DNA of 64,000 nucleotides from the NCBI RefSeq assembly GCF_046105845.1, contig NZ_CP151004.1. One strand, written 5' to 3'. Every line of letters starts with the position of its first letter. The stretch's first letter is position 1. This stretch comes from Escherichia coli. GTDB taxonomy: Bacteria; Pseudomonadota; Gammaproteobacteria; Enterobacterales; Enterobacteriaceae. The position numbers were made by a program, and so were the translations under genes. Below the pieces are notes generated by a model. That model was not told the origin of the DNA. It made no database searches and saw only the letters and a list, made by a program, of their open reading frames with translations. Below are positions 11,938 to 33,355 of the stretch, piece by piece.

Positions 11938-12255
11938 TCAATTTCTCCGCTGCTCTATTGCCGTAATCGCCTCCACGCGTTGTTGATGACGACCGCCTTC
12001 GTACTGCGCGCCCAGCCACGCATCCACAATCATTTTTGCCAGTTCGAGGCCAACCACTCGTGAACCAAAAGCCAGTGCAACTTCACTGGCGTAATGCGGA
12101 TAATCAGTGCGCTCTGACGACCTGGTTTCTTTATCAATCCCCTCACTCATTGACCATGAATAAAAGGCTGGCACAGCAACGCAGAATCCTGCGGTGCCAG
12201 CGACATGACCGCCCATTGCTCCGGTACGTTTTTTAAAAAGAAACATCGGTTGCAT
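11938..12255 (-). pseudogene. rpiB: rpiB remnant (ribose-5-phosphate isomerase B) with diverged N-terminus and internal in-frame deletion
   Basis: ORF track 105 aa; C-terminal 43 aa FGSRVVGLELAKMIVDAWLGAQYEGGRHQQRVEAITAIEQRRN and segment SSERTDYPHYAS match RpiB as remembered, but the catalytic middle segment and native N-terminus are absent. Confidence 0.7.
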
Positions 12256-12507
12256 TGATAAATTGTGCTCAGTATTTGCCGAAGTACAATATATATAATA
12301 AATATATAAAATACCTCATATTATTTGCAGAGATAATAAACTCGCGTACTTTTCCCTCTTCAGCACAAATGCCTAATAAAATGGCTCGCTCCGCTCACAC
12401 TTCCACTTATTAAAGTCGCAAATTCCCAATTATGATAACGCCAGCTTCAAATGACGTATTTTGCATGGACTACATATTTACGACATAAATGATAAATGGA
12501 GATTTAT

Positions 12508-14493
12508 ATGAATAACTCTCGGTTATTCCGTTTGAGCAGGATTGTTATTGCGTTAACTGCCGCCAGCGGCATGATGGTAAATACCGCTTACGCAACAGAT
12601 GAAGCGAAAGCCGCCACTCAATATACCCAACAGATTAATCAGAATTACGCCAAATCATTACCGTTTAGCGATCGTCAAGATTTTGACGATGCCCAGCGTG
12701 GATTTATCGCCCCGCTGCTGGATGAAGGTATTCTGCGTGATGCGAACGGTAAAGTTTACTACCGCGCAGACGATTACAAATTTGATATTAATGCCGCTGC
12801 GCCGGAAACCGTAAACCCCAGCCTGTGGCGTCAGTCGCAAATCAACGGTATTTCTGGCCTGTTCAAAGTCACCGATAAAATGTATCAGGTGCGCGGCCAG
12901 GATATCTCTAACATTACGTTCGTTGAGGGCGAGAAAGGCATTATTGTTATCGACCCGCTGGTGACGCCGCCTGCCGCAAAAGCCGCACTTGATCTTTACT
13001 TCCAGCATCGTCCGCAAAAACCGATTGTTGCTGTGATTTACACCCACAGCCACGCCGACCATTATGGCGGTGTGAAAGGCATTATCTCTGAAGCGGATGT
13101 TAAATCCGGCAAAGTGCAGGTGATCGCTCCGGCAGGCTTTATGGACGAAGCCATCAGCGAAAACGTGCTGGCGGGTAACATCATGAGCCGCCGTGCGCTC
13201 TACTCTTACGGTCTGTTACTGCCGCACAACGCGCAAGGCAATGTGGGCAACGGCCTGGGCGTGACGCTGGCAACGGGCGACCCGAGCATTATTGCACCGA
13301 CTAAAACTATCGTCAGAACTGGCGAGAAGATGATTATCGACGGCCTGGAATTTGACTTCCTGATGACTCCGGGTAGCGAAGCGCCAGCCGAAATGCACTT
13401 CTATATTCCGGCCCTGAAAGCCCTGTGTACCGCCGAGAACGCCACGCATACCCTGCACAACTTCTACACTCTGCGCGGCGCGAAAACCCGCGACACCAGC
13501 AAGTGGACCGAGTACCTGAACGAAACGCTGGATATGTGGGGTAACGACGCGGAAGTACTGTTTATGCCGCACACCTGGCCGGTCTGGGGCAATAAGCATA
13601 TCAATGATTATATTGGTAAATATCGCGATACTATCAAGTACATTCACGACCAGACCCTGCACCTGGCGAACCAGGGCTACACCATGAATGAAATCGGCGA
13701 CATGATTAAGCTGCCGCCTGCGCTTGCCAATAACTGGGCCAGCCGCGGCTATTACGGTTCTGTCAGCCACAACGCCCGCGCGGTGTATAACTTCTATCTT
13801 GGCTATTACGACGGTAACCCGGCTAACCTGCATCCGTATGGTCAGGTGGAGATGGGTAAACGTTACGTGCAGGCGCTGGGCGGTTCTGCCCGCGTTATTA
13901 ACCTGGCGAAAGAAGCGAACAAGCAAGGTGATTACCGCTGGTCGGCAGAACTGCTGAAACAGGTGATTGCCGCCAACCCGGGTGACCAGGTCGCGAAGAA
14001 TCTGCAAGCGAATAACTTTGAACAGCTGGGCTATCAGGCCGAGTCCGCCACCTGGCGCGGTTTCTACCTGACCGGCGCGAAAGAGCTGCGCGAAGGGGTG
14101 CATAAATTCAGCCACGGCACCACCGGTTCCCCGGACACCATTCGCGGAATGTCGGTCGAAATGCTGTTCGACTTTATGTCCGTTCGCCTCGATAGTGCGA
14201 AAGCCACGGGTAAAAATATCAGCCTGAACTTCAATATGAGCAACGGCGATAACCTCAACCTGACGCTGAACGATAGCGTGCTTAACTACCGTAAAACGCT
14301 GCAACCGCAAGCCGACGCCTCTTTCTACATCAGCCGTGAAGATCTGCATGCCGTGCTGACCGGACAAGCCAAATTGGCGGATCTGGTAAAAGCGAAGAAA
14401 GCCAAAATTATTGGCAATGGCGCGAAACTGGAAGAAATTATTGCCTGTCTGGATAATTTCGATTTGTGGGTGAATATCGTAACCCCAAATTAA
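12508..14493 (+). CDS. yjcS: YjcS, metallo-beta-lactamase-fold alkyl/aryl sulfatase
   Basis: ORF track 12496..14493; ATG 12508 gives 661 aa with signal peptide; HSHADH motif. Confidence 0.9.
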
Positions 14494-14503
14494 TGCCACT
14501 CAC

Positions 14504-14541
14504 TTTTGGGGGCGCTTAAGCCCCCAAAAGCATTTATTTTA
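14504..14541 (+). terminator. Rho-independent terminator after yjcS
   Basis: Hairpin ttttgggggcgcttaagcccccaaaa followed by T-rich tract, 11 nt after the stop. Confidence 0.7.
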
Positions 14542-14701
14542 AAAATACATACAACAAATTAATACATAAAATATATAAGTTATGAATGCGGTGGCTGAAT
14601 AAAGCTATTTTTATTCATCGAGAAAATAGCCATACTGACGCCTTCAATGGATATTGATATTCACTACAGATATTGTTCGCAGCAGACAGGATGTATTTAA
14701 T

Positions 14702-14977
14702 ATGCCAACAGTTCTCTCTCGCATGGCGATGCAACTCAAAAAAACAGCCTGGATAATTCCCGTCTTCATGGTTTCGGGATGCTCATTATCTCCGGCAATC
14801 CCGGTGATCGGCGCTTATTATCCCAGCTGGTTTTTCTGCGCCATTGCCAGCCTTATTTTGACGCTCATCACGAGGCGAATCATTCAGCGGACAAATATCA
14901 ATCTGGCATTTGTCGGAATTATTTATACCGCCCTTTTTGCTCTCTACGCCATGCTGTTCTGGCTGGCATTTTTCTAA
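14702..14977 (+). CDS. ytcA: YtcA small lipoprotein upstream of mdtN
   Basis: ORF track 14654..14977; ATG 14702 gives 91 aa with lipobox VSGC. Confidence 0.8.
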   Translation: MPTVLSRMAMQLKKTAWIIPVFMVSGCSLSPAIPVIGAYYPSWFFCAIASLILTLITRRIIQRTNINLAFVGIIYTALFALYAMLFWLAFF

Positions 14978-14995
14978 TCTATTTGAGACGCGCTC

Positions 14996-16027
14996 ATGGA
15001 AAGTACGCCGAAAAAAGCTCCTCGCAGTAAATTCCCTGCTCTGTTAGTGGTTGCGTTGGCGCTGGTTGCCCTTGTTTTCGTTATCTGGCGCGTAGACAGT
15101 GCGCCATCAACTAATGACGCTTACGCGTCAGCAGATACCATTGATGTGGTGCCGGAAGTCAGCGGTCGCATTGTAGAACTGGCGGTCACCGACAACCAGG
15201 CGGTGAAACAGGGCGATTTGCTGTTTCGCATCGACCCGCGCCCGTACGAAGCCAATCTGGCGAAAGCCGAAGCCTCCCTCGCGGCGCTGGATAAGCAAAT
15301 TATGCTCACCCAGCGTAGCGTTGACGCGCAACAGTTTGGTGCCGACTCGGTTAATGCCACGGTAGAAAAAGCCCGTGCCGCCGCGAAACAGGCCAGCGAT
15401 ACATTACGCCGTACCGAGCCGTTGCTAAAAGAAGGTTTTGTCTCAGCGGAAGACGTTGACCGTGCGAGGACCGCGCAGCGCGCCGCAGAAGCAGATCTTA
15501 ATGCCGTATTGTTACAGGCGCAGTCAGCCGCCAGCGCCGTCAGCGGCGTCGATGCATTAGTTGCCCAGCGTGCGGCAGTGGAAGCGGATATTGCGTTGAC
15601 CAAACTGCATCTGGAAATGGCGACCGTTCGCGCGCCGTTTGATGGCCGGGTCATTTCCCTCAAAACCTCCGTCGGGCAATTTGCTTCTGCCATGCGCCCA
15701 ATTTTTACCCTAATCGACACTCGTCACTGGTACGTGATCGCCAACTTCCGCGAAACCGATCTGAAAAATATTCGCTCAGGTACACCCGCAACGATTCGCC
15801 TGATGAGCGACAGCGGCAAAACCTTCGAGGGTAAAGTGGATTCGATTGGCTACGGCGTGCTACCGGATGACGGCGTTCTGGTGCTGGGCGGCCTGCCGAA
15901 AGTGTCTCGTTCTATTAACTGGGTCCGCGTTGCCCAGCGTTTTCCGGTCAAAATCATGGTTGATAAACCTGACCCGGAAATGTTCCGCATCGGCGCTTCT
16001 GCAGTCGCTAATCTTGAGCCGCAATAA
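14996..16027 (+). CDS. mdtN: Multidrug efflux membrane fusion protein MdtN
   Basis: ORF track 343 aa; HlyD-like periplasmic adaptor. Confidence 0.95.
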   Translation: MESTPKKAPRSKFPALLVVALALVALVFVIWRVDSAPSTNDAYASADTIDVVPEVSGRIVELAVTDNQAVKQGDLLFRIDPRPYEANLAKAEASLAALDKQIMLTQRSVDAQQFGADSVNATVEKARAAAKQASDTLRRTEPLLKEGFVSAEDVDRARTAQRAAEADLNAVLLQAQSAASAVSGVDALVAQRAAVEADIALTKLHLEMATVRAPFDGRVISLKTSVGQFASAMRPIFTLIDTRHWYVIANFRETDLKNIRSGTPATIRLMSDSGKTFEGKVDSIGYGVLPDDGVLVLGGLPKVSRSINWVRVAQRFPVKIMVDKPDPEMFRIGASAVANLEPQ

Positions 16028-18078
16028 TGAGCGCGCTCAACTCCCTGCCATTACCGGTGGTCAGGCTGCTGGCGTTCTTTCATGAAGAGTTAAGCGAGCG
16101 GCGACCAGGCCGTGTGCCGCAGACTATGCAACTCTGGGTAGGCTGCCTGCTGGTGATTCTGATCTCGATGACTTTTGAGATCCCTTTTGTGGCGTTATCA
16201 CTGGCAGTGCTGTTTTACGGTATTCAGTCGAACGCGTTTTACACCAAATTTGTGGCGATCTTGTTTGTGGTCGCCACGATGCTGGAAATCGCCAGCCTGT
16301 TTTTGATCTACAAATGGTCATATGGCGAACCGTTGATCCGATTGATCATTGCCGGACCGATCCTGATGGGCTGTATGTTTTTGATGCGCACCCATCGGCT
16401 GGGGCTGGTCTTTTTCGCCGTCGCCATTGTCGCTATTTACGGGCAAACCTTCCCCGCCATGCTCGACTATCCGGAAGTGGTCGTGCGCTTAACCCTGTGG
16501 TGTATCGTTGTTGGCCTCTATCCAACCTTGCTGATGACGTTAATCGGCGTGCTGTGGTTTCCCAGCCGCGCCATTACGCAAATGCATCAAGCGCTTAATG
16601 ATCGGCTTGATGATGCCATTAGTCACCTGACGGACAGCCTCGCACCGCTACCCGAAACGCGGATTGAAAGAGAGGCGCTGGCGCTGCAAAAACTCAATGT
16701 CTTTTGCCTCGCGGACGATGCCAACTGGCGAACTCAGAGCGCATGGTGGCAAAGCTGCGTGGCAACGGTAACCTACATTTACTCGACGCTGAATCGCTAC
16801 GATCCCACCTCTTTTGCTGATTCTCAGGCAATTATTGAATTTCGGCAAAAATTAGCCACAGAAATCAACAAACTGCAGCATGCCATTGCCGAAGGTCAGT
16901 GCTGGCAAAGCGACTGGCGGATCAGTGAAAGTGAAGCGATGGCGGCACGGGAATGTAACCTGGAGAATATCTGCCAGACGTTATTGCAACTGGGTCAGAT
17001 GGACCCGAATACGCCGCCAACGCCCGCCACCAAACCGCCATCAATGGTCGCCGACGCTTTTACCAATCCAGACTATATGCGCTACGCGGTAAAAACGCTG
17101 CTCGCCTGTTTGATCTGTTACACCTTCTACAGCGGCGTGGACTGGGAAGGCATTCACACCTGTATGCTGACCTGCGTGATCGTCGCTAACCCGAATGTTG
17201 GTTCGTCGTATCAGAAAATGGCGCTGCGTTTTGGCGGTGCCTTCTGCGGTGCAATTCTGGCGCTGTTATTCACGTTACTGGTCATGCCCTGGCTGGACAA
17301 TATTTTCGAATTGCTATTTGTGCTGGCACCGATTTTCCTGTTGGGCGCATGGATTGCCACCAGCTCTGAACGCTCTTCTTATATCGGCACACAGATGGTG
17401 GTCACCTTCGCGCTCGCCACGCTCGAAAACGTTTTTGGCCCGGTGTACGACCTGGTGGAAATTCGCGATCGCGCCCTGGGTATCATCATTGGTACCGTGG
17501 TGTCCGCGGTGATTTACACCTTTGTCTGGCCTGAAAGTGAAGCGCGCACACTGCCGCAAAAACTGGCTGGCGCGCTGGGTATGTTGAGTAAAGTAATGCG
17601 GATCCCACGCCAGCAGGAAGTCACAGCTCTGCGCACTTATTTGCAAATTCGTATAGGTCTGCATGCGGCGTTTAATGCCTGTGAAGAGATGTGCCAACGC
17701 GTGGCGCTGGAGCGTCAACTGGACAGCGAAGAACGCGCTTTACTGATTGAACGTTCGCAAACGGTTATTCGTCAGGGCCGCGATATTCTTCACGCCTGGG
17801 ATGCAACCTGGAACTCGGCGCAGGCGCTGGATAACGCACTACAGCCGGACAGAGCAGGTCAGTTTGCCGACGCACTGGAGAAATACGCCGCCGGTCTGGC
17901 AACCGCACTCAGCCGTTCTCCTCAAATAACGCTTGAAGAAACACCCGCCTCGCAGGCCATCCTGCCCACCTTATTAAAACAGGAGCAACACGTCTGCCAG
18001 CTTTTCGCCCGCTTGCCAGACTGGACAGCCCCGGCATTAACGCCCGCCACGGAACAGGCACAAGGAGCCACGCAATGA
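16027..18078 (+). CDS. mdtO: Multidrug efflux inner-membrane protein MdtO
   Basis: ORF track 683 aa; ATGA overlap with mdtN. Confidence 0.95.
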   Translation: MSALNSLPLPVVRLLAFFHEELSERRPGRVPQTMQLWVGCLLVILISMTFEIPFVALSLAVLFYGIQSNAFYTKFVAILFVVATMLEIASLFLIYKWSYGEPLIRLIIAGPILMGCMFLMRTHRLGLVFFAVAIVAIYGQTFPAMLDYPEVVVRLTLWCIVVGLYPTLLMTLIGVLWFPSRAITQMHQALNDRLDDAISHLTDSLAPLPETRIEREALALQKLNVFCLADDANWRTQSAWWQSCVATVTYIYSTLNRYDPTSFADSQAIIEFRQKLATEINKLQHAIAEGQCWQSDWRISESEAMAARECNLENICQTLLQLGQMDPNTPPTPATKPPSMVADAFTNPDYMRYAVKTLLACLICYTFYSGVDWEGIHTCMLTCVIVANPNVGSSYQKMALRFGGAFCGAILALLFTLLVMPWLDNIFELLFVLAPIFLLGAWIATSSERSSYIGTQMVVTFALATLENVFGPVYDLVEIRDRALGIIIGTVVSAVIYTFVWPESEARTLPQKLAGALGMLSKVMRIPRQQEVTALRTYLQIRIGLHAAFNACEEMCQRVALERQLDSEERALLIERSQTVIRQGRDILHAWDATWNSAQALDNALQPDRAGQFADALEKYAAGLATALSRSPQITLEETPASQAILPTLLKQEQHVCQLFARLPDWTAPALTPATEQAQGATQ

Positions 18079-19541
18079 TCAATCGTCAACTTTCACGTCT
18101 GCTGTTGTGCAGCATTCTCGGCAGCACGACGCTGATTTCCGGCTGTGCCCTGGTACGCAAGGATTCTGCGCCTCATCAACAGCTCAAACCTGAACAAATC
18201 AAACTGGCCGATGATATTCATCTTGCCAGCTCCGGCTGGCCGCAGGCGCAGTGGTGGAAACAACTCAATGACCCGCAGTTGGATGCCCTGATCCAACGGA
18301 CGCTAAGTGGTTCACACACCCTCGCCGAAGCGAAACTGCGGGAAGAAAAAGCGCAGTCCCAGGCCGATTTGTTAGATGCTGGTTCACAGTTGCAAGTGGC
18401 AGCGTTAGGGATGCTCAACCGCCAACGTGTCTCGGCGAACGGCTTTTTAAGCCCTTATGCGATGGATGCGCCCGCACTGGGGATGGACGGGCCGTACTAT
18501 ACGGAAGCCACAGTCGGTTTGTTTGCCGGATTGGATCTCGATTTGTGGGGTGTGCATCGCTCAGCGGTTGCCGCTGCCATTGGCGCGCATAATGCCGCGC
18601 TGGCAGAAACCGCAGCAGTAGAGCTATCGCTGACCACGGGCGTAGCGCAGCTTTATTACAGTATGCAGGCCAGCTATCAGATGCTCGATCTGTTAGAACA
18701 AACTCGCGATGTGATTGATTACGCGGTAAAAGCGCACCAGAGTAAAGTGGCGCACGGTCTGGAAGCGCAAGTGCCTTTCCACGGCGCGCGGGCACAGATT
18801 CTGGCGGTCGATAAACAAATTGCTGCCGTTAAAGGGCAAATCTCCGAAACGCGAGAATCTCTGCGCGCATTGATTGGCGCGGGAGCCAGCGATATGCCGG
18901 AGATCAGACCGGTGGCATTACCGCAAGTCCAGACCGGCATTCCGGCGACACTCTCTTATGAGTTGCTCGCCAGACGCCCGGATCTGCAAGCCATGCGCTG
19001 GTATGTTCAGGCGTCATTAGATCAGGTGGATTCCGCGCGGGCGCTGTTCTATCCGAGCTTTGATATCAAAGCGTTTTTCGGCCTGGATTCTATCCACCTG
19101 GATACCTTATTCAAAAAAACCAGTCGCCAGTTCAACTTTATCCCAGGTCTGAAATTGCCGCTGTTTGACGGTGGACGGTTGAATGCCAATCTCGAAGGCA
19201 CTCGCGCCGCCAGCAACATGATGATTGAACGTTACAACCAGTCAGTGCTGAATGCGGTGCGCGACGTTGCCGTCAACGGCACGCGTCTGCAAACGCTCAA
19301 CGACGAGCGAGAGATGCAGGCTGAACGCGTAGAAGCAACGCGCTTCACCCAGCGCGCTGCCGAGGCCGCCTATCAACGCGGCTTAACCAGCCGCTTACAG
19401 GCCACCGAAGCCCGGTTGCCAGTGCTTGCCGAGGAGATGTCATTACTGATGCTGGACAGCCGCCGGGTGATCCAAAGCATTCAGTTGATGAAATCGCTGG
19501 GCGGCGGGTATCAGGCAAGTCCCGTCGTCGAGAAAAAATAA
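18075..19541 (+). CDS. mdtP: Multidrug efflux outer-membrane channel MdtP
   Basis: ORF track 488 aa; lipobox ISGC; overlaps mdtO stop. Confidence 0.95.
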   Translation: MINRQLSRLLLCSILGSTTLISGCALVRKDSAPHQQLKPEQIKLADDIHLASSGWPQAQWWKQLNDPQLDALIQRTLSGSHTLAEAKLREEKAQSQADLLDAGSQLQVAALGMLNRQRVSANGFLSPYAMDAPALGMDGPYYTEATVGLFAGLDLDLWGVHRSAVAAAIGAHNAALAETAAVELSLTTGVAQLYYSMQASYQMLDLLEQTRDVIDYAVKAHQSKVAHGLEAQVPFHGARAQILAVDKQIAAVKGQISETRESLRALIGAGASDMPEIRPVALPQVQTGIPATLSYELLARRPDLQAMRWYVQASLDQVDSARALFYPSFDIKAFFGLDSIHLDTLFKKTSRQFNFIPGLKLPLFDGGRLNANLEGTRAASNMMIERYNQSVLNAVRDVAVNGTRLQTLNDEREMQAERVEATRFTQRAAEAAYQRGLTSRLQATEARLPVLAEEMSLLMLDSRRVIQSIQLMKSLGGGYQASPVVEKK

Positions 19542-19671
19542 AATGTCTGCCGCGTGATGGCTGTCACGCGGTATTTCGTTTCGTCACGTCAAAACTGACG
19601 ACAGCCTGTTTTTCGTCAGAGTTTTGAATAAATAGTGCCCGTAATATCAGGGAATGACCCCAAATAAAATG

Positions 19672-19687
19672 TGGCATAAAAGATGCA
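19672..19687 (+). promoter_or_regulatory. Sigma-54 (-24/-12) promoter of fdhF
   Basis: TGGCATAAAAGATGCA: GG and GC spaced as in the TGGCAC-N5-TTGCA consensus, about 50 nt upstream of fdhF ATG. Confidence 0.75.
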
Positions 19688-19738
19688 TACTGTAGTCGAG
19701 AGCGCGTATGCGTGATTTGATTAACTGGAGCGAGACCG

Positions 19739-21886
19739 ATGAAAAAAGTCGTCACGGTTTGCCCCTATTGCGCATCAGGTTGCAAAATCAACCTGGTCGT
19801 CGATAACGGCAAAATCGTCCGGGCGGAGGCAGCGCAGGGGAAAACCAACCAGGGTACCCTGTGTCTGAAGGGTTATTATGGCTGGGACTTCATTAACGAT
19901 ACCCAGATCCTGACCCCGCGCCTGAAAACCCCCATGATCCGTCGCCAGCGTGGCGGCAAACTCGAACCTGTTTCCTGGGATGAGGCACTGAATTACGTTG
20001 CCGAGCGCCTGAGCGCCATCAAAGAGAAGTACGGTCCGGATGCCATCCAGACGACCGGCTCCTCGCGTGGTACGGGTAACGAAACCAACTATGTAATGCA
20101 AAAATTTGCGCGCGCCGTTATTGGTACCAATAACGTTGACTGCTGCGCTCGTGTCTGACACGGCCCATCGGTTGCAGGTCTGCACCAATCGGTCGGTAAT
20201 GGCGCAATGAGCAATGCTATTAACGAAATTGATAATACCGATTTAGTGTTCGTTTTCGGGTACAACCCGGCGGATTCCCACCCAATCGTGGCGAACCACG
20301 TAATTAACGCTAAACGTAACGGGGCGAAAATTATCGTCTGCGATCCGCGCAAAATTGAAACCGCGCGCATTGCTGACATGCACATTGCACTGAAAAACGG
20401 CTCGAACATCGCGCTGTTGAATGCGATGGGTCATGTCATTATTGAAGAAAACCTGTACGACAAAGCGTTCGTCGCTTCCCGTACAGAAGGCTTTGAAGAG
20501 TATCGTAAAATCGTTGAAGGCTACACGCCGGAGTCGGTTGAAGATATCACCGGCGTCAGCGCCAGTGAGATTCGTCAGGCGGCGCGGATGTATGCCCAGG
20601 CGAAAAGCGCCGCCATCCTGTGGGGCATGGGTGTAACCCAGTTCTACCAGGGCGTGGAAACCGTGCGTTCTCTGACCAGCCTCGCGATGCTGACTGGTAA
20701 CCTCGGTAAGCCGCATGCGGGTGTAAACCCGGTTCGTGGTCAGAACAACGTGCAGGGTGCCTGCGATATGGGCGCGCTGCCGGATACGTATCCGGGATAC
20801 CAGTACGTAAAAGATCCGGCTAACCGCGAGAAATTCGCCAAAGCCTGGGGCGTGGAAAGCCTGCCTGCTCATACCGGTTATCGCATCAGCGAGCTGCCGC
20901 ACCGCGCAGCGCATGGCGAAGTGCGTGCCGCGTACATTATGGGCGAAGATCCGCTGCAAACTGACGCGGAGCTGTCGGCAGTACGTAAAGCCTTTGAAGA
21001 TCTGGAACTGGTTATCGTTCAGGACATCTTTATGACCAAAACCGCGTCGGCGGCGGATGTTATTTTACCGTCAACGTCGTGGGGCGAGCATGAAGGCGTG
21101 TTTACTGCGGCTGACCGTGGCTTCCAGCGTTTCTTCAAAGCAGTTGAACCGAAATGGGATCTGAAAACGGACTGGCAAATCATCAGTGAAATCGCCACCC
21201 GTATGGGTTATCCGATGCACTACAACAACACCCAGGAGATCTGGGATGAGTTGCGTCATCTGTGCCCGGATTTCTACGGTGCGACTTACGAGAAAATGGG
21301 CGAACTGGGCTTCATTCAGTGGCCTTGCCGCGATACTTCAGATGCCGATCAGGGGACTTCTTATCTGTTTAAAGAGAAGTTTGATACCCCGAACGGTCTG
21401 GCGCAGTTCTTCACCTGCGACTGGGTAGCGCCAATCGACAAACTCACCGACGAATATCCGATGGTACTGTCAACGGTGCGTGAAGTTGGTCACTACTCTT
21501 GCCGTTCGATGACCGGTAACTGTGCGGCACTGGCGGCGCTGGCTGATGAACCTGGCTACGCACAAATCAATACCGAAGACGCCAAACGTCTGGGTATTGA
21601 AGATGAGGCATTGGTTTGGGTGCACTCGCGTAAAGGCAAAATTATCACCCGTGCGCAGGTCAGCGATCGCCCGAACAAAGGGGCGATTTACATGACCTAC
21701 CAGTGGTGGATTGGTGCCTGTAACGAGCTGGTTACCGAAAACTTAAGCCCGATTACGAAAACGCCGGAATACAAATACTGCGCCGTGCGCGTCGAGCCGA
21801 TCGCCGATCAGCGCGCCGCCGAGCAGTACGTGATTGACGAGTACAACAAGTTGAAAACTCGCCTGCGCGAAGCGGCACTGGCGTAA
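19739..21886 (+). CDS. fdhF: Formate dehydrogenase H (selenoprotein); in-frame UGA at 20156..20158 read as selenocysteine
   Basis: ORF track pieces 19739..20158 and 20207..21886 are in one frame separated by TGA; combined 715 aa; CxxCxxGC 4Fe-4S motif at N-terminus; ...CARV-U-HGPSVAG context. Confidence 0.95.
20156..20204 (+). promoter_or_regulatory. SECIS element (SelB-binding mRNA hairpin) directly 3' of the fdhF UGA
   Basis: UGA followed by cacggcccatcggttgcaggtctgcaccaatcggtcggtaatggcg, which can fold as a stem-loop. Confidence 0.85.
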
Positions 21887-21900
21887 TACAGTCCTTTCTA

Positions 21901-21928
21901 CAGCCTCCTTTCGGAGGCTGTTTTTTTA
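21901..21928 (+). terminator. Rho-independent terminator after fdhF
   Basis: cagcctcc-tttc-ggaggctg hairpin followed by TTTTTTT, 15 nt after the stop. Confidence 0.85.
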
Positions 21929-21979
21929 TCCATTCGAACTCTTTATACTGGTTACTCCCTACCCAATCGTATTATCAAA

Positions 21980-22669
21980 ATGAAAAAAATTATCGCATTG
22001 ATGTTGTTTTTAACATTCTTTGCCCACGCGAACGACTCCGAGCCTGGCAGCCAGTATTTAAAGGCAGCAGAGGCCGGGGACCGACGCGCACAATATTTTC
22101 TTGCCGACAGCTGGTTTAGCTCCGGCGATTTGAGCAAAGCCGAATATTGGGCACAGAAAGCCGCCGACAGCGGTGATGCTGATGCCTGCGCGCTGTTAGC
22201 GCAGATCAAAATCACCAATCCGGTCAGTCTGGACTATCCACAAGCAAAAGTTCTTGCAGAGAAAGCAGCGCAAGCGGGCAGTAAAGAAGGTGAAGTAACG
22301 CTGGCGCATATTCTGGTAAATACTCAAGCGGGTAAACCGGATTATCCAAAGGCGATTTCGCTGTTAGAAAACGCTTCGGAAGATCTGGAGAACGACTCTG
22401 CCGTCGATGCCCAAATGCTGCTTGGTTTGATTTACGCCAACGGCGTGGGCATTAAGGCCGACGATGACAAGGCAACCTGGTATTTCAAACGCAGCTCTGC
22501 GATTTCCCGAACCGGTTATTCCGAGTACTGGGCGGGAATGATGTTCTTAAACGGTGAAGAAGGTTTTATCGAGAAGAACAAGCAAAAGGCGCTGCACTGG
22601 TTGAATCTGAGCTGTATGGAAGGGTTTGATACCGGGTGTGAAGAGTTTGAAAAATTAACTAACGGTTAA
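21980..22669 (+). CDS. yjcO: YjcO, Sel1-repeat periplasmic protein
   Basis: ORF track 229 aa; signal peptide; Sel1/TPR-like repeats. Confidence 0.9.
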   Translation: MKKIIALMLFLTFFAHANDSEPGSQYLKAAEAGDRRAQYFLADSWFSSGDLSKAEYWAQKAADSGDADACALLAQIKITNPVSLDYPQAKVLAEKAAQAGSKEGEVTLAHILVNTQAGKPDYPKAISLLENASEDLENDSAVDAQMLLGLIYANGVGIKADDDKATWYFKRSSAISRTGYSEYWAGMMFLNGEEGFIEKNKQKALHWLNLSCMEGFDTGCEEFEKLTNG

Positions 22670-22670
22670 G

Positions 22671-22710
22671 GTAGGCCTGATAAGACGCGGCAAGCGTCGC
22701 ATCAGGCATC
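22671..22710. repeat. REP element between yjcO and gltP
   Basis: gcctgataagacgcggcaagcgtcgcatcaggc palindromic unit. Confidence 0.7.
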
Positions 22711-33138: not shown

Positions 33139-33173
33139 GCCGGATGCGGCGGATAACGCCTTATCCGGTCTAC
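33139..33173. repeat. REP element between acs and yjcH
   Basis: gccggatgcggcggataacgccttatccggtctac palindromic unit. Confidence 0.7.
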
Positions 33174-33355
33174 ACGCCCCTTTCTTTATAGTGGGAAAGG
33201 GCAAATATAAAAATTCCCCTAAGTATTTCGCGTTGCAGGAAGGAAGCAAGCGAGCATCTCCCCAGGAGCATAGAAAACTATGTGACTGGGGGAGGCGAGT
33301 GCGGCTGACGAACCTGCGGCGTGAAAGACGACGGGGAACCTCTGGAGAATCTGTG

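Follow-up and report, generated by a model that had tools for sequence, protein, structure and literature searches.

In-frame UGA and adjoining SECIS hairpin of Escherichia coli fdhF: a known selenocysteine recoding site with constraint on RNA shape as well as on protein code

We analyzed a 64-kb stretch of Escherichia coli DNA (64,000 nucleotides, referred to here as the window) in which the fdhF reading frame contains a TGA at codon 140. This UGA is almost certainly decoded as selenocysteine (Sec), and not as a stop, by way of the SECIS element adjacent to it, and none of our results contradicted Sec decoding of the codon. The feature is already known: the codon is a textbook case of selenocysteine in E. 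coli fdhF, and the recoding hairpin of that gene is known as well. The gene and the codon are placed as follows.

19739 to 21886, plus strand: fdhF coding sequence, specifying the 715-residue selenoprotein formate dehydrogenase H (FDH-H), assigned from the single frame, identity to PDB chains, the TIGR01591 match and RefSeq.
20156 to 20158, plus strand: UGA codon 140, recoded as the active-site residue Sec140, assigned by alignment with solved FDH-H chains.

The fdhF frame (19739-21886) is 716 codons long and contains no stop other than codon 140 and the terminal one. Around the TGA at 20156-20158, the plus strand reads GCT CGT GTC TGA CAC GGC CCA TCG GTT GCA GGT CTG CAC, and it continues after that last CAC with CAA TCG GTC GGT AAT GGC GCA ATG. 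A mechanical list of open reading frames (ORFs) cuts the gene at this TGA, as the preliminary description of this DNA had observed, into one piece at 19739..20158 (139 amino acids, ATG start) and another at 20207..21886 (559 amino acids). That description had also held that the two pieces share a frame, and they do: both offsets are multiples of three [(20156 − 19739)%3 = 0 and (20207 − 19739)%3 = 0], and the TGA is the sole internal stop. The second piece begins with an in-frame ATG at 20207, which is Met157 of FdhF. Its presence would permit a reading as two genes, one for a 139-amino-acid N-terminal Fe-S protein and one for a 559-amino-acid protein starting at that ATG, but this arrangement is improbable to the point of being virtually nil. 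In all orthologues the protein sequence of the 16 codons from TGA to ATG (HGPSVAGLHQSVGNGA) is conserved, and these codons form part of a single solved chain; the NCBIfam equivalog TIGR01591 (“formate dehydrogenase subunit alpha”) matches without a break, with residues 6-685 lying on profile positions 1-672 of 672 (1089 bits, against a cutoff of 666.25).

Joined across the UGA, the product has the 715 amino acids that had been predicted for it, and when aligned to FdhF it proved 100% identical. All 715 residues agree with the PDB chains named “FORMATE DEHYDROGENASE H” (1AA6, 1FDI, 1FDO, 2IV2 and 7Z0T, the last being a solved structure of the same FDH-H chain), so there is no protein-level difference. 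Residue 140 of those chains is the nonstandard residue X (Sec), and it is aligned to the UGA. The residue aligned to UGA140 is Cys in 7QV7_S (CARLCH), 7BKB_D (CARICH) and 9WXB_B (CARVCH), and it is X in 9T1S_L (CARLXH). Since other formate dehydrogenases carry Cys or X here, the UGA falls on the catalytic Sec/Cys position. The translation also contains, at its N-terminal end, a four-cysteine [4Fe-4S] motif (C8-x2-C11-x3-C15 plus C42), which is identical in the solved chain. In the 1AA6 and 1FDO structures, Sec140 is the selenium ligand of the Mo-bis-MGD cofactor in FDH-H.

The gene is nearly universal in the species: of 5426 complete E. coli genomes, 5419 contained a match to the 2.4-kb fdhF region, and 5411 of 5420 E. 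coli records carried the 55-mer that makes up the SECIS element, TGA included, at 99% identity or more. The nearest complete genome differed from the window at 8 bases across fdhF, none of them inside the SECIS element and all 8 synonymous, which indicates purifying selection on the whole fdhF frame. RefSeq already annotates a single 2148-nt fdhF coding sequence here, between mdtP and yjcO, in agreement with the earlier call for one selenoprotein coding sequence; a single fdhF coding sequence is likewise given by RefSeq for strain A10, where the coordinates are collinear, and some records name the product [quoted passage not shown] These data bear on the possibility that fdhF is a pseudogene in this genome, with the TGA being a premature nonsense mutation and only a 139-amino-acid fragment being made. 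Such a reading would accord with the two pieces in the mechanical ORF list and with the normal use of TGA as a stop. It is nevertheless exceedingly unlikely, given that the TGA-containing 55-mer is conserved in nearly all E. coli records, that the 559 codons past the TGA are 100% identical as protein to the crystallized enzyme, that every DNA difference from the nearest genome is synonymous, and that Sec occupies position 140 in solved structures. The warning in the preliminary description that the split could be mistaken for a pseudogene was well placed, as conservation within E. coli and among orthologues and the solved Sec-containing enzyme all attest.

Three nested features describe the RNA element that adjoins the codon (nucleotides numbered with the U of UGA as nucleotide 1).

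20151 to 20205, plus strand: full SECIS element, Rfam SECIS_2 (RF01988), located by cmscan, model positions 1-55.
20156 to 20198, plus strand: classical fdhF SECIS hairpin of about 40 nt, nucleotides 1-43, from the MFE fold.
20170 to 20186, plus strand: minimal 17-nt apical stem-loop GGUUGCAGGUCUGCACC, nucleotides 15-31, the putative SelB-binding part, from sequence and fold.

We searched Rfam release 15 with cmscan and obtained a match to SECIS_2 (RF01988) that scored 87.1 bits (gathering score, 70) and covered positions 1-55 of 55 without truncation (E = 4.6e-20 for the local search and 1.8e-17 for a search of all 64 kb of the window). It was the sole SECIS-family match above the gathering score in the 64 kb, and it departed from the SECIS_2 consensus only at two lower-case (variable) positions. 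Because the model was presumably built from enterobacterial fdhF, the high score largely reflects sequence identity and is not independent evidence. At the same site SECIS_3 (RF01989) scored 35.8 bits, below its gathering score of 63; apart from SECIS_2 and this overlap, no Rfam family matched the element on either strand, and none other than SECIS_2 reached its gathering score there. The RF01988 score, along with Sec140 in the PDB chains, bears out the earlier identification of this locus as the classic FDH-H recoding site. The extent originally given for the element, 20156-20204, ends one base short of the SECIS_2 model end at 20205.

The MFE folds of 20150-20210 and of 20156-20198 both consist of the pairs of the SECIS_2 consensus structure, so that the comparison with the known fdhF SECIS that had been suggested for 20150..20210 came out in agreement. 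For 20156-20198 the MFE structure is ..((.(((((.((.(((.(((....)))))).)).))))))). at −14.9 kcal/mol (z = −1.28, with 18 of 200 shuffles as stable); the folding energy for 20150-20210 is −21.2 kcal/mol (z = −0.92, with 36 of 200 shuffles as stable). A stable hairpin directly after the UGA had been anticipated: the fold is there and matches SECIS_2, but its stability is no better than that of shuffled sequences. Since neither z value is significant, we did not use hairpin stability as evidence. The hairpin is nonetheless established beyond chance by the covariance-model match, by synonymous constraint and by pairing in the named structure.

Between the UGA and the apical stem-loop lies a spacer of 11 nt (20159-20169, nucleotides 4-14, spacer and lower stem). 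The apical loop is GGUC, formed by G22-G23-U24-C25 at 20177-20180 (G23 at 20178, U24 at 20179), and one of the two U's at 20172-20173 (U17 and U18) is unpaired in the MFE fold. An outer 5-bp helix in the SECIS_2 model pairs GUGUC at 20151-20155 with GGCGC at 20201-20205 and thereby spans the UGA. The hairpin nucleotides also encode residues 141-155 (HGPSVAGLHQSVGNG). Published work describes the fdhF SECIS as a 40-nt hairpin with a 17-nt upper stem-loop 11 nt from the UGA, and U17, G23 and U24 as critical for SelB (PMC8659212). The element in the window shares the UGA, the 11 nt and then GGUUGCAGGUCUGCACC with its GGUC loop and bulged U; it is the same in everything compared as the E. coli fdhF SECIS (RF01988), the founding bacterial SECIS, and it is that element.

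To look beyond E. coli, we scanned one genome per species (GTDB) with a DNA pattern back-translated from C-A-R-V-UGA-H-G, which fixes only nucleotides 1-8 of the element. The scan returned 120 loci, and a filter on the translated context (*HGP[ST]V) left 81 in the FdhF reading frame, from Enterobacterales, Pasteurellales and two Coriobacteriales. About a third of the 120 were chance matches in a non-FdhF frame (for example, in Nocardiopsis and Planctomycetota) and were dropped. The TGA was present in 81 of 81 fdhF orthologue loci, a figure that the search pattern itself demanded; its occurrence at the same codon in these loci, which come from many genera, also counts against a pseudogene.

Synonymous codon use was analyzed in 78 distinct 330-nt orthologue sequences from Enterobacterales and Pasteurellales. 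Normalized synonymous-codon entropy was 0.25 in codons +1 to +15, compared with 0.70 in the flanks (Mann-Whitney test, P value = 5.9e-6). Among these distinct orthologues, Ala+6 was GCA in 74 of 74, Gly+7 was GGT in 78 of 78, and Leu+8 was CTG in 78 of 78, and the 56 that keep His+9 all use CAC, while elsewhere in the alignment the codons for Gly, Leu and Ala draw on 3 to 5 synonyms. Nucleotide identity of the orthologues to the window sequence was 93.5% in the SECIS element versus 79.3% in the flanks. These results show that selection acts on the shape of the RNA in addition to the encoded protein.

Conservation of synonymous positions over 20156-20205 might in principle reflect some other element overlapping the gene, for example an antisense RNA or ORF or a promoter within fdhF. 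Two minus-strand mechanical ORFs do cover part of the region (19775..20188, 137 amino acids with a TTG start, and 20089..20409, 106 amino acids). We consider this explanation to be of negligible probability. The constraint is limited to about 15 codons right after the UGA and does not extend along the antisense ORFs, the conserved bases fall where the SECIS model has its base pairs or its loop, SECIS_2 is the one Rfam family at threshold, and no sigma-70-like promoter was found in 19500-22100.

In the 55-column alignment, 90.5% of cells were paired in the named structure, versus 22-47% when the 3' partners were slid by 1 to 3 columns. The outer helix was paired in 97.6% of cells (42 distinct orthologue sequences). 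Three pairs showed change on both sides, and two of them, G15-C31 and U18-A29, are named apical pairs: G15-C31 became U15-A31 in 8 distinct sequences of Pasteurellales, and U18-A29 became A18-U29 in 8 distinct sequences, also of Pasteurellales. The 5' side keeps its amino acids (Ser TCG to TCT and Val GTT to GTA); the changes on the 3' side alter the protein (His to Leu and Gln to Lys). These compensatory changes belong mostly to one clade, the Pasteurellales, and so represent roughly a single evolutionary event for each pair. The number of pairs altered on both sides was not above that in column shuffles (365 of 500), and in shuffle tests of this kind kinship alone can let related sequences outdo shuffles without any structure.

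The codon and pairing data also bear on whether the UGA is simply read by a near-cognate Trp or Cys tRNA without the Sec machinery, the hairpin being irrelevant or serving only to slow the ribosome. Low-level UGA suppression without a SECIS exists in E. coli, and the free energy of the hairpin is unremarkable, both of which would suit this explanation. We judge it very improbable indeed, however, because GCA-GGT-CTG is frozen in 78 distinct sequences (74 keeping Ala+6), because two covarying pairs are not expected of an irrelevant sequence, and because published work shows that decoding requires SelB, tRNA(Sec) and the SECIS, and Sec is seen in solved structures. FdhF activity is reported to be lost when selB or selC is deleted.

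Covariation further distinguishes between two registers of the bulge. The register of the Rfam model and the MFE fold, in which U18 is bulged, left 10 distinct sequences unpaired at columns 22-34 and was rejected. The published register, in which U17 (20172) is bulged and U18 pairs with A29, turns 8 of those 10 into compensatory A-U pairs. Given that the change from U18-A29 to A18-U29 fits only the U17-bulge register, the published register is preferred; covariation thus gives an independent reason to favor a bulge at U17, as published, over one at U18 that is thermodynamically equivalent. An unbulged variant of the element occurs in Morganellaceae, Hafnia and Edwardsiella.

The outer helix brackets the UGA and must therefore be open when codon 140 is being decoded by the ribosome. 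Its third positions vary almost only between C and U, such that a G-C or G-U pair is retained, and GGC155 occurs in 75 of 78 orthologue sequences. The helix may be just a by-product of codon choice. Selection for a second role, for instance in the balance between recoding and termination by release factor 2 (RF2) or in the protection of untranslated mRNA, is an unlikely alternative, though one to which we attach some small weight.

The mechanism by which this site would be read can be assembled from published work. The stem-loop immediately 3' of the UGA is described together with a requirement for tRNA(Sec), SelA, SelD and SelB in Sec insertion, and recoding is put at 30-40% in vivo, in competition with RF2 (PMC4513850). 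In SelB, domains I-III are EF-Tu-like, and the last two C-terminal winged-helix motifs, WH3/WH4, contact the SECIS, according to a study in which fdhF was the native reporter (bioRxiv 10.1101/2025.02.04.636165). On this basis, the C-terminal winged-helix domain of SelB would bind the apical stem-loop as the ribosome nears UGA140, with SelB carrying GTP and Sec-tRNA(Sec) (anticodon UCA). On reaching codon 140, the ribosome would melt the lower stem, and the apical stem-loop, 11 nt downstream, would hold SelB-GTP-Sec-tRNA(Sec) at the A site. The tethered ternary complex would then compete with RF2, Sec would be inserted, and translation would proceed through the hairpin. The resulting Sec140 would provide the selenium that ligates the molybdenum cofactor of FDH-H, the formate-oxidizing subunit of the formate hydrogenlyase complex. 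Published experiments have established SelB binding and selenium-dependent readthrough for exactly this sequence. The genes selA, selB, selC and selD are not in the 64-kb window, and no tRNA genes were found in it; in E. coli K-12 the sel genes are located at other places on the chromosome.

Beyond the fdhF element itself, the closest known systems are the SECIS elements of fdnG and fdoG. These follow a common principle, in which a gene for the catalytic subunit of a formate dehydrogenase carries an in-frame UGA and, still within the coding sequence, a SelB-binding hairpin after it; FdnG (PDB 1KQF) matches the region around Sec140 (E = 1.8e-16). They differ from fdhF in having another SECIS sequence family and in encoding periplasmic, Tat-exported enzymes of about 1015 amino acids. 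Eukaryotic and archaeal SECIS elements (for example, SECIS_1) also rely on a structure in the mRNA, together with a dedicated elongation factor, to recode UGA as Sec. They are kink-turn-type structures in untranslated regions and, by way of other proteins, act over a distance, whereas the fdhF hairpin lies inside the ORF and directly adjoins the UGA. No match to the eukaryotic or archaeal SECIS families was reported at E values up to 10.

Signals flanking fdhF give its expression context, and the gene appears to be monocistronic. Three sites were noted.

19548 to 19573: terminator-like hairpin after mdtP.
19672 to 19687, plus strand: sigma-54-type −24/−12 promoter-like site TGGCATAAAAGATGCA (TGGCAT-N5-ATGCA), with one mismatch to TGGCAY-N5-TTGCW.
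21900 to 21921, plus strand: intrinsic-terminator-like hairpin and T-run, 14 nt past the fdhF stop codon, assigned from sequence.

The last of these has a 9-bp stem, 6 of whose pairs are G-C, and then TTTTTTT. Matches to the sigma-54 pattern with one mismatch were not above chance in the window (7 found versus 6.5 expected). Transcription of fdhF starts from a promoter dependent on sigma-54 and FhlA, and the sigma-54-type site upstream of the gene agrees with that regulation; the site belongs to the expression context and is not a recoding signal.

Bacterial selenocysteine recoding has its founding example in this element, so the finding adds nothing new for biology. Its practical meaning lies in clean annotation: ORF callers for which TGA is always a stop would give fdhF as two fragments or as a pseudogene, while the right annotation is one coding sequence, 19739..21886, with a translation exception at 20156..20158, as public RefSeq records already have it. 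The comparative check, in turn, provides a didactic example of how an RNA structure constrains synonymous sites within a gene.

fdhF, the gene for the selenoprotein formate dehydrogenase H (19739-21886, +), was 99.7% identical to its collinear counterpart in the E. coli comparison genome strain A10, and all 8 differences were synonymous. For the 10-kb block enclosing the gene (12284-22709), identity to the same strain was 98.4%; comparison of 19600-22000 with this block shows stronger conservation of fdhF than of the sequence around it. Among the complete E. coli genomes of the collection, none carried a 100% identical copy of the 2.4 kb at 19600-22000. Three sequence features lie around the gene:

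19548-19573, +, terminator-like hairpin with a T-run, after mdtP
19672-19687, +, sigma-54-type -24/-12 site TGGCATAAAAGATGCA, found as a pattern, with the fdhF ATG about 52 nt further downstream
21900-21921, +, terminator-like hairpin with a T-run, after fdhF

The sigma-54-type pattern by itself was not above chance within the window, and no sigma-70-like promoter was found anywhere in 19500-22100. Because terminator-like hairpins lie on both sides of the gene, the sequence suggests that fdhF is a monocistronic unit.

At 12075-12284, the window lacks about 6.8 kb present in strain A10, whose gene order is K-12-like. The missing segment comprises the 5' part of rpiB together with alsR-alsB-alsA-alsC-alsE-alsK, and the rpiB remnant, which adjoins yjdP, directly abuts the upstream region of yjcS. 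Of the 5426 complete E. coli genomes, 1569 (strain 042 among them) share this rpiB/yjcS junction, scored as present where 80% or more of a 651-bp probe was covered; the junction is thus a common lineage polymorphism. The window also differed from strain A10 in the length of three intergenic regions, the first of which retains a REP-like palindrome, GCCTGATAAGACGCGGCAAGCGTCGCATCAGGC (about 22675-22707), and two further RNA families were identified:

22671-22709, yjcO-gltP spacer, about 226 bp shorter in the window
33158-33338, acs-yjcH spacer, about 245 bp shorter in the window
40621-40644, ghxP-soxR region, about 650 bp shorter in the window
40502-40642, +, sraL (RyjA) Hfq-binding sRNA in the ghxP-soxR interval, 153.3 bits (gathering score 39)
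2528-2608, -, naRNA4 (nucleoid-associated ncRNA 4, CssrE; REP-type repeat family), Rfam, 64.6 bits (gathering score 59.5)

Finally, we looked at the SECIS, the UGA-recoding hairpin (nt 1 is the U of the UGA), at loci from a DNA-pattern scan of one genome per species. In the genomes of Pluralibacter gergoviae (L030, L031) and Cedecea neteri (L060, L061), fdhF is present as a pair of UGA-containing paralogues, and every copy has a SECIS of its own. At the Pasteurellaceae fdhF loci L019:10484-10526, L065, L070 and L087, Thr (ACA) replaces Ala at the sixth codon after the UGA; the G19-C28 pair becomes an A-C mismatch, and the predicted fold is weak (-6.0 kcal/mol, z = +1.1). The two Coriobacteriales loci, L051 and L115, keep only the GGUCUG core.

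In E. coli, the bulged U17 is a reported SelB contact. The fdhF SECIS of Morganella, Proteus, Providencia, Edwardsiella, and Hafnia has G, not C, at nt 30 (peptide ...GLQRS...; L037:1355-1397, L028, L034, L036, L039, L077, L084, L088, L090, L108, L112, L121), and the predicted apical stem is an unbroken 6-bp helix, GUUGCA/UGCAGC, without the bulged U. This bulge-free predicted stem in GLQRS-type fdhF indicates that the U17 bulge may not be universal or that SelB may differ in these five genera.
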